From positions 121,789 to 185,788 of the forward strand of contig JAYRZB010000005.1 of NCBI GenBank assembly GCA_041916675.1: a stretch of DNA of 64,000 bases, read 5' to 3'. The DNA is from Devosia sp. GTDB taxonomy: Bacteria; Pseudomonadota; Alphaproteobacteria; Rhizobiales; Devosiaceae. Position 1 is the stretch's first letter; each line of letters starts with the position of its first letter. The translations under genes were made by a program, and so were the position numbers. Positions 5,889 to 10,548 of this stretch are shown piece after piece. The notes below the pieces were generated by a model. That model was not told where the DNA came from, made no database searches, and saw only the letters and a list, made by a program, of their open reading frames with translations.

Positions 5889-5965
5889 GGCGGAGTAGCT
5901 CAGTTGGTTAGAGCAGCGGAATCATAATCCGTGTGTCGGGGGTTCAAATCCCTCCTCCGCTACCA
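5889..5965 (+). tRNA. tRNA-Met (anticodon CAT), elongator type; a lysidine-modified tRNA-Ile2 cannot be excluded
   Basis: Hand-folded cloverleaf. Acceptor GGCGGAG/CTCCGCT, D arm GCTC-AGTTGGTTA-GAGC, anticodon stem GCGGA/TCCGT with loop ATCATAA, T arm GGGGG-TTCAAAT-CCCTC, encoded CCA. No C1:A72 mismatch and no GGG/CCC anticodon stem, so it is not an initiator. Confidence 0.9.
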
Positions 5966-6325
5966 AATTTTCCATTTCCCCTCAAATTTGCGGGTGCATG
6001 TGATTTATGCGTGTAGATGTCGCATGAACTCGGGTTCGTTTGCAGCAAACGCGGGTTTGATCATTCCGCAGCTTGCTCGTCCCGCTGTTTCTGCGCCATC
6101 ACCGCGAAAAATGGCCCGCGACCGGCAGAAAGCCAGGTGCGACGCGAGCGTCACAGAAGGATTCAGGATACAGGCTATCCGGGGGGAGGGGGCTGGTTTC
6201 ACTGAAATGCTGGGCGCTGCAGTGTATGGATGGCGTGTTTAGGGCCTTTACTCAACATCGGCGCTCCATTACGCGCGATGGAGTGGAGCCAATGGCGGCG
6301 AGCGCTTAGCGGACTGCGGGGGCAT

Positions 6326-6727
6326 ATGGAAATGTGGAAGTGGTTGACGCGCATTGTCGTTGTCGTGCTGGTCGCAGGCGGCGGATATGCTGCCTACGAT
6401 TATTTCATGGCAGGCTTTCACACGAGACCGGAGATGCCGGAAGGCGCATTCTCGATTTCATACAAGAATGGTCTGCGGGCCATCCTCATCGATGTCCCCA
6501 ACGAACAAGAAACTCGGCGCTACTTCGGCTTCCCCCAGGATGTTCCGTTCTACGTCAAGGACGCGTGGTCGCTTTGTCATCCGCCCACGGATGAAGAAGC
6601 GCCAGAAGTCGCCCGCTTTTTGCAGGATCGCAACATGCCCGGCGAGCGATTTGAGGCGGTGTGCAAGGTGACGGTGGACGATGATGTTGTCTTGCGAGGG
6701 CTCATAACGTCCGTCCCGAAACTTTAG
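6326..6727 (+). CDS. hypothetical membrane-anchored protein
   Basis: Internal ATG of ORF 6230..6727. N-terminal TM WLTRIVVVVLVAGGGYAAYDYF followed by a soluble domain. No family recognised. Confidence 0.45.
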   Translation: MEMWKWLTRIVVVVLVAGGGYAAYDYFMAGFHTRPEMPEGAFSISYKNGLRAILIDVPNEQETRRYFGFPQDVPFYVKDAWSLCHPPTDEEAPEVARFLQDRNMPGERFEAVCKVTVDDDVVLRGLITSVPKL

Positions 6728-6795
6728 CAGGCGGCTCGCAGATGGCCCGTAGACTGCCTAGCGACAAGGGAAAGCACCGGGCAAATCAGTGGAGG

Positions 6796-7293
6796 TCAAG
6801 CTGTTGCGCCGAGGACGAAACGGGCGCGCTCTCGCCGCAACATTTCATACGGACTGATGCAGGGCACGGTGAGGCCAATACAGGCATTCGGAATCTTGAT
6901 CTTCCGAACCGTCTCGGCAGGAACCTCGTGAGTGACCACCGTGAAGTTATGGGCCAGGGCGTGCGACACCAGCCAGTAGTCAGCGACTTGCAGGAACGTC
7001 GCAATTGCCGCCGGTTCATAATTTTGGCTCGTGGCCCACGTGCTCACGCGCGTCAGAGCTGGCAGAACAGGGTCGTCGGGGGGCAGAAAGAATCCAGCTC
7101 CCCGCGCCGTGGCCCAGACGGACAGGTCATCGCCCCCCGCCTGCAATTCGTCGCCAACCTTGTCGATGCTCGCAACCGTCCCCGCACCGTTCTGCTGCAC
7201 CAGCCAATCCCAGAATGCGGGACAGAAATCGAACCCATAGTGCAGGTTCTTGGCCTGGATGAAAATGTTGGTATCGAGCAGGTAGCGCGTCAT
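6796..7293 (-). CDS. DUF4411 family PIN-like nuclease-fold protein (putative toxin/effector)
   Basis: 165 aa. MTRYLLDTNIFIQAKNLHYGFDFCPAFWDWL... and ...VVTHEVPAETVRKIKIPNAC match my recollection of the DUF4411 signature. The start overlaps the upstream gene's stop by 4 nt. Confidence 0.8.
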   Translation of the reverse strand: MTRYLLDTNIFIQAKNLHYGFDFCPAFWDWLVQQNGAGTVASIDKVGDELQAGGDDLSVWATARGAGFFLPPDDPVLPALTRVSTWATSQNYEPAAIATFLQVADYWLVSHALAHNFTVVTHEVPAETVRKIKIPNACIGLTVPCISPYEMLRRERARFVLGATA

Positions 7294-8444
7294 AGCAAGA
7301 CTCCGACTTCCCTGCCGATATTGTTGAAGGTTTCGGTCTTGGCGACGCCAAGCATTCGGAATGCATCGCGATACAGCGTCTGGCCCTCCAGCGTGCTCTC
7401 AACAAGAGCCCGCGCAAACCTTCGGCTCACCCGCGAAAGCGTCGTCCGGTAAAAATCGCCGCCGCCTGCATCCCCTTCGGCGGCCTCCCGAAGTCGCGCC
7501 CTCTCCATCGCCCACGCAGCATCGAACGCCGCGCGGTCGAGCCAGCGCGCATCCAGAAGCCGGCGAAGAATGACAAGGGTGCTCACCTTGAACACGCGCG
7601 CCAGTCTGGGCAGCGCGAAGGTCAGCGCCTCGTTCTCTCGCAGCTCTGGCCGCAACCGTGCAAGCGGCACCAGCAATTCCGCCGCCACTGCGTTGCACCA
7701 GACTTCTTCTCGCCTGTAGCCGTTGAGTGGCGCGGCACTGGCATTCGACACCGCCGAGCTTCCAAGCCACAGATGAGCAAGCTCGTGGGCCAGCGTAAAC
7801 ATCTGGCCGGACTTCGTATCTGTCCCATTGATAAAGACCAGCGGCGCGCGGCTGTCCGCGAGCGCGAAGCCACGAAACTCATCAACATCCAGCCTGCGCC
7901 GGTTGTTGCTGAGGACAACGCCGCTGACCATGACCAGCACGCCAATTCGGTCGGCTTGCCCAATGAACATCCGGAGCGCTTCTTCCCAAGTAAGGGATGC
8001 TGCGCGTGCGTTGGTATCGAACCCTAGCGTTGCCGCCATTCTCCCGGCAACTGTCTCGGGCGCTTCCGCAAGCGTGACGCTGCCAACAAACTCCAGCTCC
8101 CGTTGGCGTGTTGTCTGGGCAAACTCCCGATACCATCCCTGTCGCTCCTGGCACGCATAGAGCATGTCCAGCAAATCGGGGCTGGCACGTCGTACGCCCC
8201 TCCCGTCCACTGTTCGGAAGTCGGGAATAGGCAAGGGCTCGTCTGGCGGTTCAGGCAAAAAAAGATAGCCGATCGGGACGCGCACAGCCCGCGCAAAGTC
8301 GTCCAATTGTTTGAGCGTCGGCAGCTTGTCGCCAGCTTCCCATTCCCCCAGCTTGGGAAAGCGCGCCTCAAGCTCCGCAGGCTCCATCCTTGCGCGCTCT
8401 CGCGCCCATGTCATCATTGCGGGGCTTACAGCGGCGCGGGTCAT
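7290..8444 (-). CDS. XRE-type HTH fused to an ImmA/IrrE (M78) zinc metallopeptidase
   Basis: 384 aa. N-terminal HTH region (LPTLKQLDDFARAVRVPIGYLF), HEXXH motif HELAHLWLG, long C-terminal extension. Known genomic partner of DUF4411. Confidence 0.85.
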   Translation of the reverse strand: MTRAAVSPAMMTWARERARMEPAELEARFPKLGEWEAGDKLPTLKQLDDFARAVRVPIGYLFLPEPPDEPLPIPDFRTVDGRGVRRASPDLLDMLYACQERQGWYREFAQTTRQRELEFVGSVTLAEAPETVAGRMAATLGFDTNARAASLTWEEALRMFIGQADRIGVLVMVSGVVLSNNRRRLDVDEFRGFALADSRAPLVFINGTDTKSGQMFTLAHELAHLWLGSSAVSNASAAPLNGYRREEVWCNAVAAELLVPLARLRPELRENEALTFALPRLARVFKVSTLVILRRLLDARWLDRAAFDAAWAMERARLREAAEGDAGGGDFYRTTLSRVSRRFARALVESTLEGQTLYRDAFRMLGVAKTETFNNIGREVGVLL

Positions 8445-8779
8445 GTGCCTCGCCCCGCACGCTGTTTCGAGATGGTCGCAAACCCAAGAAACCGCTCGAC
8501 CTTGATTTTGGCGGCGCGTTTACGGGCCTGGGCAATGTCGTAGCTGTTCTGCATGCGCATGAGCGTTTCGAGGGAAAACCCAAATGCCTTCTCAATCCGC
8601 AGCGCCATGTCAGCGGATAAGTGCGTGTGCTCATTCAGGAATGCGGACAGTCCCGGTCGGGTCACACCAAGCACCTTGGCCGCCTCTGTCACCGTCAGCC
8701 CATGTGCCTCGATGATTTCTGCGCGAACGAAAGCGCCCGGGTGAACAGGCGCCGCCGTTATGTTTTGTACGGTTGTCAA
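8441..8779 (-). CDS. higA: HigA-family (VapI-like) HTH antitoxin/transcriptional regulator
   Basis: PVHPGAFVRAEIIEAHGLTVTEAAKVLGVTRPGLSAFLNEHTHLSADMALRIEKAFG is the typical HigA core. I prefer TTG 8779, preceded by GGAGG 6 nt upstream, over the track start at 8830. The stop overlaps the next gene's start by 4 nt. Confidence 0.75.
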   Translation of the reverse strand: MTTVQNITAAPVHPGAFVRAEIIEAHGLTVTEAAKVLGVTRPGLSAFLNEHTHLSADMALRIEKAFGFSLETLMRMQNSYDIAQARKRAAKIKVERFLGFATISKQRAGRGT

Positions 8780-9031
8780 CCCGTCCTCCAAGCTCCGTAA
8801 AGCATAGCAGACCCGAATTCTGCCCGTCAAACGTCAAGTGACGGTTTACATTTCGAACGACGAGAACATCAGGCAATCCGGTGCTTTGGGGCACTCCCAC
8901 CAGAATAGAAATCTCCGCCCGCTCCGTGGGGGTTATTGGCTGCATTGGATCTCCGCTACCAGAATTTCTTCCAATGAACTCCTCGCAACGATCCGCTCGG
9001 GTCTTTGGATTTCCGGCCTCCCCCGTACGTC

Positions 9032-9628
9032 CTATTCGAGCAAAACGGTCCTGAAAGTCAGGGAAACTCGGCGGGTTCGGGCTGTGCGGGTGCCGTGAAT
9101 GACGTCGAAGCGGCGGGCGGCGATGCTATGGGTCCAGGTGAAGCGTGCCTCGCCGCTGAGAACCAAGAGACTGCCGGGCTCCAGGATTTGCCCGGCCATG
9201 TCTTTGCTGCCGGTGTGGGCAAAATCCATGATGCATTGTGAGCCTAGGCTGAGCGATGCAACGGTTCCACCGAAGCACGGCTCGCAATCGATATGAGCGG
9301 CAATGCCCTGCCCTGGCAAATATTCGTTGATGATGACCTGGTCGGGAATGGAGCCAAAATGGCCCTCAGTTGCCAGCCTTTCGGCGTGGCGGGTGAGCCA
9401 GTCGGGTAGTGCGCCGATATAGCTGTCCCGGTTCAGGCGCCGGGCTCTGTAATCGTAGAGATAGCCATAGTGCTGCACCCGGCGTTTGAGATCATTGCGC
9501 CAGGGTTGTGCCTCAATCAGAGCGAGCAGGGCCGACTGGTCGTCTTTTGCAAGATAGCTCGGTGAATAAATGGCGCCGCTCGGCAACATGGGCAAGGGCT
9601 CTATTGGCAATGCCGAGAAGTTTAGCAA
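9032..9628 (-). CDS. alkB: AlkB-family 2OG-Fe(II) dioxygenase
   Basis: 198 aa. INEYLPGQGIAAHIDCEP (HxD) and a later THS...RVSLTFR (RxS) motif. Start is uncertain: TTG 9628 or ATG 9589. Confidence 0.75.
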   Translation of the reverse strand: MLNFSALPIEPLPMLPSGAIYSPSYLAKDDQSALLALIEAQPWRNDLKRRVQHYGYLYDYRARRLNRDSYIGALPDWLTRHAERLATEGHFGSIPDQVIINEYLPGQGIAAHIDCEPCFGGTVASLSLGSQCIMDFAHTGSKDMAGQILEPGSLLVLSGEARFTWTHSIAARRFDVIHGTRTARTRRVSLTFRTVLLE

Positions 9629-9664
9629 ATCGCGCCGGACTGGTCACCTACCCCCAAGAACAGC

Positions 9665-9687
9665 GATGCCCGCGCGGGGCGGGCATC
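9665..9687 (-). terminator. hairpin terminator candidate downstream of 9691..10029
   Basis: GATGCCCGC-gcggg-GCGGGCATC 9-bp stem immediately after the stop. The trailing U-tract on the minus strand is only moderate (GCUGUUCUU). Confidence 0.4.
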
Positions 9688-9690
9688 GGG

Positions 9691-10029
9691 TTAGTTGAAG
9701 GTGAAGGTGCCGATTTCGCAGACGTTGACATCGGCTTTTTCGACAACGTCGCCATCGTCGAACACGGCGCGGAAGTCGTATTTGCAGTAGCCGGTGCCAT
9801 CATCGATGTTGATCACAACCGAATGGCCGGAGGGCAAGACGCTTTTGCCCAGAATGTCTTCCTCCCAGGATTTCTGGCCCACCGAGGAGGCATAGAACTG
9901 TTCCATGACATAGCCGGTATTGTTGACGATCTCGACGCGGCGATCGAGCGCCAGTGACGGCGCTACGGTTGCCAGAATGGTTGCCACGGCCAGCGTTGCC
10001 GTGGCGGCCAGAATTGCAGAGTGCTTCAT
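9691..10029 (-). CDS. small secreted protein (hypothetical)
   Basis: 112 aa. Signal peptide MKHSAILAATATLAVATILATVAPSLA. Two Cys residues; no recognised family. Confidence 0.6.
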   Translation of the reverse strand: MKHSAILAATATLAVATILATVAPSLALDRRVEIVNNTGYVMEQFYASSVGQKSWEEDILGKSVLPSGHSVVINIDDGTGYCKYDFRAVFDDGDVVEKADVNVCEIGTFTFN

Positions 10030-10185
10030 CTATTCCCTCTTTGTGCGCTTGGCGCTTTGCTCTGATAGTCCCCGGAGCAAATCTGGCACGGGAGAGGTGT
10101 TATTTACAATCGTAACGATTGAATTTTGTTACAGAAGTTGAGCCCGGCCATGGGCCGGGCCCGGATGGTGCAGGGCAGCGGGGTC

Positions 10186-10548
10186 TTATTCGGGGGCGAA
10201 GCCGGGCTTGCCGTTCTTGAGTTCGTCTTCAGCGATGAATTCGCCGTCGCACAGGTCGATGACGAAGGTGTAGTAGCGATAGCCGTAGGGCCCGATCTTG
10301 GTGCCGAAGCCGTGCACCTTGGTGCCGTTTTCGAACAGGCGGAACTGGTAGTACTGATAGTACTGATAGAGCTTGAGATTGGCGGCGATCTGCCCCTGGC
10401 GCGCCGATTCAGACAGGCAGTTTTCCCCCATCGGTCCGGCGCCGTTAAGGGCCGATGACAGGCCGGCGGCCGAGGCGGGTTGAACTGCGCAAAGGGCAAT
10501 GGCGGCCGTGGTCAGGGCGGCAGCGGCGAGGCGAGCAATCGAAAACAT
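10186..10548 (-). CDS. small secreted protein (hypothetical)
   Basis: Internal ATG 10548 gives signal peptide MFSIARLAAAALTTAAIALCAVQPASA. Tyr-rich segment LYQYYQYYQF. No recognised family. Confidence 0.55.
   Translation of the reverse strand: MFSIARLAAAALTTAAIALCAVQPASAAGLSSALNGAGPMGENCLSESARQGQIAANLKLYQYYQYYQFRLFENGTKVHGFGTKIGPYGYRYYTFVIDLCDGEFIAEDELKNGKPGFAPE

Follow-up and report, generated by a model that had tools for sequence, protein, structure and literature searches.

A HigA-family gene coupled to a predicted VapBC52-type toxin-antitoxin pair beside tRNA-Met in a Devosia genome

The DNA analysed here is a stretch of 64,000 nucleotides (nt) from Devosia sp. (GCA_041916675.1, JAYRZB010000005.1 positions 121,789 to 185,788, forward strand), which we refer to as the window. 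Close to a tRNA-Met gene it contains three head-to-tail minus-strand open reading frames (ORFs), at 8441-8779, 7290-8444 and 6796-7293. These encode a HigA-family helix-turn-helix (HTH) protein, a protein with an HTH domain and an M78 (ImmA/IrrE) peptidase domain, and a DUF4411 protein. As judged from protein homology, the second and third genes are a member of the already characterised VapBC52-type toxin-antitoxin pair. Only these latter two genes form the conserved unit, and the presence of the HigA-like gene beside this pair is a rare add-on of a small lineage. Taken as a whole, the locus is probably one operon in which an autoregulated controller of the HigA family is combined with a VapBC52-type toxin-antitoxin/abortive-infection pair.

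The HTH-M78 and DUF4411 proteins

Reading of the sequence confirmed that the three genes are chained by 4-nt overlaps, as described in the initial annotation: an ATGA joins the HigA-like gene to the M78 gene at 8441-8444, and a second joins the M78 gene to the DUF4411 gene at 7290-7293. The family assignments of all three products also held in profile searches (PF14367, PF06114 and HTH_3/TIGR02607). The DUF4411 protein matches PF14367 over its full length (E 2.5e-53). Its candidate catalytic acids, D7 (7275-7273), E49 (7149-7147), D105 (6981-6979) and E123 (6927-6925), are invariant in an alignment (A1) of DUF4411 homologues of at least 78% identity. The M78 protein matches Peptidase_M78 (PF06114, E 5.6e-17) over residues 165-296. 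In 74 family members the HEXXH motif, the third zinc ligand E247 and an FR motif (F76 97%, R77 99%) are 97-99% conserved, and much of the C-terminal region is likewise conserved. The middle protein had been described as carrying an XRE-type HTH plus an intact HEXXH. The latter is present as HELAH at residues 220-224. The HTH was not detected by Pfam in the N-terminus of the window protein; it is supported indirectly, because the alignment to VapB52 begins at residue 8 and PF01381 is found in close homologues (~79% identity).

The nearest characterised relatives of the pair are from Mycobacterium tuberculosis. A phmmer comparison aligned residues 8-350 of the M78 protein with residues 4-358 of PDB 9vzy_A (VapB52; E 6.4e-24), and a profile built from A1 matches PDB 9vzy_D/9vzz_A, 'DUF4411 family protein' (VapC52), with E 5e-9. 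Entries 9VZY and 9VZZ are the M. tuberculosis VapB52/VapC52 proteins, Rv2515c/Rv2514c (Singh et al., NAR 2026, PMC13273310). VapC52 has a PIN fold and cleaves tRNAs; VapB52 consists of an N-terminal HTH domain, a middle domain with the M78 peptidase and an HTH, and a C-terminal domain that occludes the toxin active site. One antitoxin binds a toxin dimer (VapB52:VapC52 stoichiometry 1:2), and the N-terminal domain of VapB52 is self-cleaved on single-stranded DNA (ssDNA), at or near a conserved FR motif (PMC13273310).

The likeness to the window is close in layout. In both, the gene for a DUF4411 PIN toxin is preceded and overlapped by that for an HTH-M78 antitoxin, and both proteins are homologous in sequence, with the HEXXH, the Glu ligand and the conserved C-terminal domain in common. 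The FR motif is found where the N-terminal domain meets the middle domain, and there PDFRTVDG of the window protein aligns with RDFRRLDG of VapB52. This full-length homology bears out the earlier suggestion that the DUF4411 protein is the nuclease effector and the HTH-M78 protein its antitoxin and sensor, and the earlier statement that DUF4411 has no experimentally defined role has been superseded by the study of VapC52 (PMC13273310). Toxicity, neutralisation, ssDNA-induced self-cleavage and tRNA cleavage are known only from the M. tuberculosis proteins; we infer by homology that the window pair would share the 1:2 binding, the activation by ssDNA, the self-cleavage and the tRNA target.

Distribution of the cassette and of the HigA-like gene

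Among genomes scanned at one per species, 511 encode a close DUF4411 relative; the best 80 loci were examined. They belong to Alpha- and Gammaproteobacteria, Chloroflexota, Nitrospirota, Nitrospinota, Gemmatimonadota, Acidobacteriota and Binatia, and their DUF4411 proteins are 73-86% identical to that of the window. Directly upstream of the DUF4411 gene, in 80 of 80 loci, is an M78 gene (62-85% identity), and the 4-nt overlap between the two (NTGA) is retained in 78. DNA similarity between the window and these genomes is limited to 8458-6793, exactly the two ORFs, and thus delimits a cassette of 1.65 kb. None of the 80 related genomes has a HigA homologue adjoining the M78 gene, so the three-gene order put forward earlier is not conserved in them, and in none is M78 coupled to a separate HTH gene. 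The gene that precedes M78, of whatever kind, ends in the M78 start ATGA at about 45 of the 76 loci with a placeable M78 start. Because it couples by overlap to varied preceding genes, the cassette behaves as a promoter-less plug-in.

Type I restriction-modification (R-M) genes are frequent neighbours. Downstream of DUF4411 on the same strand, hsdR is present at 37 of the 80 loci (e.g., L066:3315-6578 and L007:1292-3559); hsdM is also found upstream in 28 of those 37, and hsdS usually lies directly before M78. The same arrangement was recovered on metagenome contigs (L117-L122), where hsdS, M78 and DUF4411 are followed by a coupled ORF in the hsdR position, all with 4-nt overlaps. Also present in the genome loci are a gene for a MazE-family antitoxin and an Abi_C protein (both by Pfam) and, as judged by eye, VapC-like, AbiEi-like and reverse-transcriptase-like proteins and an AAA-ATPase resembling PrrC/RloC. 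The surroundings of the cassette in relatives are a defence-island context, and a defence role for the pair fits its presence within the type I R-M operons of 37 of the 80 relatives.

The HigA-like protein is a clear member of its family by sequence, with a score of 84.1 bits against NCBIfam TIGR02607 (HigA equivalog; cutoff 47.7) and a match to HTH_3 (E 2.4e-10). When a profile of its clade was searched against solved structures, the nearest were HigA/YbaQ, and no R-M controller (C) proteins were matched at E <= 0.01. The longest ORF for the gene is 8441-8830. We favour the TTG start at 8779 on three grounds: GGAGG (8789-8785) lies 5 nt upstream of the TTG, near-identical metagenome contigs (L001-L003) carry 112-aa gene calls, and TTG/GTG starts align at the equivalent position in homologous loci. 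No long ORF and no Pfam match (E <= 10) was found in any gene-strand frame of 8780-9034, upstream of the gene, where a HigB would lie, and no sampled context of a homologue contains HigB. A faint resemblance to the HigB C-terminus, seen by eye in one frame of 8780-9034, was considered as a possible higB remnant and was rejected, since Pfam gave nothing at E <= 10 and no relative has a HigB.

Homologues of the HigA-like protein are 61-83% identical across the sampled contexts, and 61-74% identical in those that head operons lacking the cassette. The combination of HigA and cassette recurs in at least three other metagenomic contexts. In one (L084-L087) the HigA is 76-81%, the M78 protein 84% and the DUF4411 protein 87% identical to those of the window, and genes for BrxC/BrxD-like proteins and a DEAD-helicase lie upstream; in another (L088-L091) the corresponding values are 83%, 92-94% and 95-98%, and a DUF4130 gene is upstream. 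The 4-nt overlap between HigA and M78 is retained in the window, L084, L089 and L124. Elsewhere the clade stands before other systems. One homologue (P0124; L092-L096) heads hsdM of a type I system, two (P0184 and P0130; L100-L108) head type III mod-res on a conjugative element, another (P0131; L109-L116) heads a gene for an MmeI-like enzyme and a helicase gene, and one more (P0133; L097-L099) heads genes for SNF2-type helicases. Contigs L092 (HigA-hsdM) and L117 (hsdM-hsdS-M78-DUF4411 and the coupled ORF) overlap by 517 nt at 100% identity, and we therefore reconstructed from them a HigA-headed composite operon, HigA-hsdM-hsdS-M78-DUF4411 followed by the ORF in the hsdR position. A further contig has a different XRE gene (L123:1318-1647; 109 aa, not HigA-like) with a 4-nt overlap to an M78 gene whose product is 83% identical to the window's, an arrangement that points to independent recruitment of stand-alone regulators before the cassette.

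Upstream of the HigA-like gene is a sigma-70-like promoter (8801-8830; Table 1), the sole promoter-like site in 6600-9100. Homologous loci at the head of different operons share its -35 hexamer and the TAnnnT of its -10. Overlapping the -35 is an operator-like conserved block, GTAAACCGTCACTTGACGTTTGACGG, that occurs once in the window, with 0 occurrences expected by chance, and is 96% identical over 27 nt in the contigs that have a HigA-like gene before hsdM (L092-L096; aligned in A3). Because its closest relatives have no HigB and head restriction operons and SNF2 helicase genes behind a conserved promoter and operator, the HigA-like gene probably encodes a controller-type regulator rather than an antitoxin; this role, which we draw from context alone, is the most likely one. 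We conclude that the gene is an accessory, portable regulator that supplies a promoter to the cassette outside restriction operons. The initial annotation had viewed it as a dedicated third regulatory layer of the toxin-antitoxin module; it is better read as a controller borrowed from restriction operons, with relatives that lack HigB. Proteins annotated as 'HigA family addiction module antitoxin' that head restriction operons are probably mis-annotated controller-type regulators.

A model for the operon, its alternatives and its surroundings

In the mechanism we propose, a single operon would be transcribed from the sigma-70-type promoter at 8830-8801, whose -35 is overlapped by the putative palindromic operator. 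The HigA-family protein would regulate its own synthesis in the manner of an R-M C protein, and would provide both a promoter and repression to the promoter-less two-gene cassette. The PIN ribonuclease (DUF4411) would be kept silent, as a dimer, through binding by the HTH-M78 protein. When phage replication or DNA damage gives rise to ssDNA, the zinc peptidase of the HTH-M78 protein would become active and cut the protein's own N-terminal domain at F76-R77, and the freed PIN toxin would cleave tRNAs and halt growth.

Several points weigh against this model. The operator is putative, and binding of the HigA-like protein to it is a proposal. The M78 protein has its own HTH and could regulate the operon without HigA. 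Identity to the VapBC52 proteins is low (roughly 25-30%, by eye). VapB52 has a cysteine switch, C229, in a loop that occludes the zinc site; the window M78 protein instead has Ser233 (7748-7746), conserved in 99% of the 74 family members, and activation of the peptidase may thus differ from that of VapB52 and CapP. An AlphaFold2 model of the DUF4411 protein computed from A1 reached a pLDDT of 52 and a pTM of 0.50; the alignment was too shallow, and the model was discarded. Even for VapBC52 a native anti-phage role is not firm, because VapC52 over-expressed alone protected Mycobacterium smegmatis from phage D29, and co-expression with the antitoxin gave no protection (PMC13273310).

An M78 peptidase beside a separate XRE gene is the classic layout of ImmR/ImmA, DdrO/IrrE and CapH/CapP (discussed in PMC13273310 and PMC5499597). 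By analogy with ImmR/ImmA or CapH/CapP, the peptidase could cleave the HigA repressor in response to ssDNA or DNA damage, so that the operon is derepressed and more toxin is made. The 4-nt coupling of HigA to M78 in the window, L084, L089 and L124 and the other XRE gene in L123 would suit such a circuit. We nonetheless think it unlikely. The absence of a separate, coupled HTH gene from all 80 related genomes implies that the M78 peptidase can do without a substrate of this kind; VapB52 is self-cleaving; the HigA clade also occurs in operons without an M78 peptidase; and no DFR-type motif was seen by eye in HigA.

The origin of the arrangement could also be sought in a HigA-headed type I R-M operon from which hsdM-hsdS and hsdR were lost, leaving the three genes as a relic in which HigA is tied to the toxin pair by promoter supply alone. 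This proposal concerns origin and is compatible with the controller model. The composite operon reconstructed from overlapping contigs has the expected parental form, from HigA (P0124) through hsdM and hsdS to M78 (P0245), DUF4411 and the ORF in the hsdR position. At 80% identity, its M78 protein is nearer to the window's than any other sampled one except those of loci with a stand-alone HTH gene, and its hsdM is 75-91% identical to hsdM genes that flank genome cassettes. A relic is still a rather improbable account, given that HigA is missing from the operon head for most cassettes embedded in R-M operons, that no hsd remnants occur in the window (none were found by tblastn) and that the junction is a clean ATGA overlap, not a scar. 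The three-gene unit also appears to be maintained, since it persists at 76-83% HigA identity in the other contexts. Very improbable, in our view, is that HigA is the chance survivor of a decayed higBA beside an independent two-gene toxin-antitoxin module. The protein does pass the NCBIfam HigA equivalog threshold, its nearest solved structures are HigA antitoxins, and toxin-antitoxin genes do cluster in islands; against this stand the failure to find HigB on the gene strand of 8780-9034 or in any sampled context of the clade, and the conservation of the ATGA coupling and of the promoter across contexts.

The module lies between copies of a direct repeat (D2). One copy is at the 3' end of tRNA-Met, and the other, an imperfect copy (16/18), is at 8951-8968. 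DNA homology to L088-L090 ends at 8961, which coincides with the latter, and these contigs carry a tRNA-3'-like nonamer, TGGTAGCGG, at the equivalent place. The copy at 8951-8968 is thus a candidate attachment (att) scar and left boundary of a mobile segment. The repeats bracket about 3.0 kb containing the three genes and an ORF at 6230-6727, without an integrase. Three contigs from different JGI metagenomes (L088, L089 and L090) carry the same unit of ~2907 nt in circularly permuted forms. It is made up of an att-like site, HigA, M78, DUF4411 and DUF4130, and the permutation implies that the unit is tandem or circular. An exact look-up of the AlkB-like protein encoded upstream of the module, made in search of an empty site, returned occupied sites only. 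When metagenomes were scanned for the predicted tRNA-Met/attR junction, the pattern matched one contig, L125, at an identical stretch of 23 nt (L125:1108-1130). L125 is unrelated: it shows no similarity to the window and lacks an intact tRNA gene; its tRNA-3'-like fragment is near an ORF that resembles, by eye, the C-terminus of TrbE/VirB4. A conjugative element that targets the same site may have left an att remnant there.

The initial annotation placed the module in a lower-GC patch next to tRNA-Met. The tRNA gene is indeed there, and the GC dip is modest and leaves out the two cassette genes: values are 0.56-0.59 at 6001-7000 and 8501-10500, 0.61-0.63 over the two cassette genes and 0.60-0.70 in the flanks.

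Table 1. Coordinates of the genes, motifs and sites of the module and its surroundings in the window.
Feature	Position	Strand	Details
tRNA-Met	5889-5965	+	ARAGORN
Repeat copy at tRNA-Met 3' end	5955-5972	+	Direct repeat D2
DUF4411 PIN-like toxin gene (predicted VapC52-type)	6796-7293	-	165 aa; PF14367
HTH-M78 (ImmA/IrrE) peptidase antitoxin gene (predicted VapB52-type)	7290-8444	-	384 aa; PF06114
HELAH (HEXXH) of M78 protein	Residues 220-224, 7787-7773	-	Within PF06114 match
Third Zn ligand of M78 protein	E247	-	Conservation in 74 family members
FR motif of M78 protein	F76-R77, 8219-8214	-	Within PDFRTVDG
N-terminal XRE-like domain of M78 protein	About residues 8-65	-	Homology
Conserved C-terminal helical domain of M78 protein	About residues 330-384	-	Family conservation
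HigA-family XRE HTH gene	8441-8779	-	112 aa, TTG start; TIGR02607, HTH_3
Shine-Dalgarno GGAGG	8785-8789	-	5 nt before TTG; TGGAGG in L084, L089, L090, L092
Sigma-70-like promoter	8801-8830	-	TTGACG, 18-nt spacer, TATGCT, TG before -10
Operator-like conserved block GTAAACCGTCACTTGACGTTTGACGG	8824-8849	-	Holds palindrome CGTCA-NN-TGACG (8832-8843); overlaps -35
Imperfect copy (16/18) of tRNA-Met 3' end, CTCCGCTACCAGAATTTC	8951-8968	+	Direct repeat D2

Several neighbouring genes were recorded. Upstream of the module is a gene for an AlkB-like 2OG-Fe(II) oxygenase (9032-9628, minus strand), and a 53%-identical AlkB-like gene is downstream of DUF4411 in L081 (6959-7501). A DUF4130 gene lies beside the module in L088/L090 (L088:1417-2112). 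The recurrence of DNA-repair-type genes beside the module may be due to chance, or may be tied to the sensing of ssDNA or DNA damage. Within the putative islet, the ORF at 6230-6727 (plus strand, 165 aa) is convergent with the DUF4411 gene. Its product has an N-terminal hydrophobic stretch, as seen by eye, and gave no match in Pfam or NCBIfam.

These observations can be combined into a broader proposal, which we hold only tentatively and regard as doubtful in its entirety: that the HigA clade is a portable controller and not an antitoxin clade, that the cassette is a promoter-less hsdS/hsdR plug-in, and that the two were joined on a ~3-kb islet at tRNA-Met. The portable controller may be a promoter-operator-regulator unit that recombines before type I, type III, MmeI-like and SNF2-helicase systems and before the M78-DUF4411 cassette. 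The cassette may usually sit between the hsdS and hsdR genes and back up restriction in the way of PrrC. The integrase-less islet, which would recur in three metagenomes as the circularly permuted 2.9-kb unit, may fit a cis-mobilisable mini-element.

Prediction of the HTH-M78/DUF4411 pair dates from 2017, and its structure and biochemistry were described in 2026; identification of the pair opens no new question. The useful part of this analysis is the comparative picture of a near-invariant 1.65-kb cassette across phyla, often joined by 4-nt overlaps to type I operons. The replacement of Cys by Ser suggests that activation in the main environmental clade may differ from that of VapB52, the only studied homologue, and a class of defence-operon regulators may be systematically mis-annotated, to judge from the HigA-family 'antitoxins' found at the head of restriction operons. 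The points concerning Ser-for-Cys and HigA are incremental.

Comparison with known systems

The arrangement in the window departs from VapBC52 in having an extra HigA-family gene upstream. The cassette also differs from VapBC52 in belonging to a highly conserved, horizontally spread proteobacterial and multi-phylum clade, often inside type I R-M operons. Contrary to the initial annotation, which knew of no description of the three-gene arrangement, stand-alone HTH components beside DUF955-PIN systems were already known: Matelska et al. (2017) reported DUF4411.1 genes downstream of fused HTH-DUF955 genes as 'three-component' toxin-antitoxin systems, with occasional stand-alone HTH components, and linked PIN toxins to type I R-M operons (PMC5499597). 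Unlike the present analysis, those predictions are at the level of domains; they do not recognise in the third gene a controller of the HigA family that restriction operons also have, and they give no figures for placement between hsdS and hsdR. A similar HTH-DUF955 (COG2856)/PIN prediction was reportedly made by Makarova et al. in 2009.

Known R-M C proteins include C.PvuII, C.Csp231I and the product of the C gene that heads the hsd operon of Mycoplasma gallisepticum (reviewed in PMC12707154). Like the HigA-like gene of the window, C genes are small XRE-type HTH genes that come first in the operon, with their own promoter and an overlapping palindromic operator, and are co-transcribed with, or translationally coupled to, downstream genes that are potentially toxic. 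The window protein differs in that it is in the HigA family by sequence, not in the classical C-protein family, and its regulation is predicted. With HigBA the window shares a HigA-family HTH protein, and the upstream, same-strand HigB (RelE-fold) toxin of such a module was not found in any gene-strand frame of 8780-9034.

Anticodon nucleases of the PrrC/RloC type are embedded in type I R-M loci, in the slot between hsdS and hsdR, and the trigger of PrrC is an anti-restriction peptide. The relatives of the cassette share this position, and their effector is probably likewise a latent tRNA-cleaving nuclease. The nucleases are unrelated, however (PIN versus the ABC-ATPase/nuclease of PrrC), and the trigger of VapB52 is ssDNA. 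The window copy differs further in not being linked to R-M genes.

RosmerTA and CapH/CapP resemble the window in their use of an HTH and M78 peptidase partner as sensor or antitoxin. The link to RosmerTA drawn in the initial annotation did not hold up in PADLOC: the M78 protein has weak matches to capP and RmrA profiles (E 1e-13 to 1e-3; best RmrA profile E 8.6e-13), mainly in the peptidase core, and there was no system-level match and none for the DUF4411 toxin. In contrast to RosmerTA and CapH/CapP, the window has neither CBASS nor an RmrT partner. A separate HTH gene beside the peptidase gene, as in ImmR/ImmA, DdrO/IrrE and CapH/CapP, is present in the window and a small clade and is absent from all 80 related genomes.

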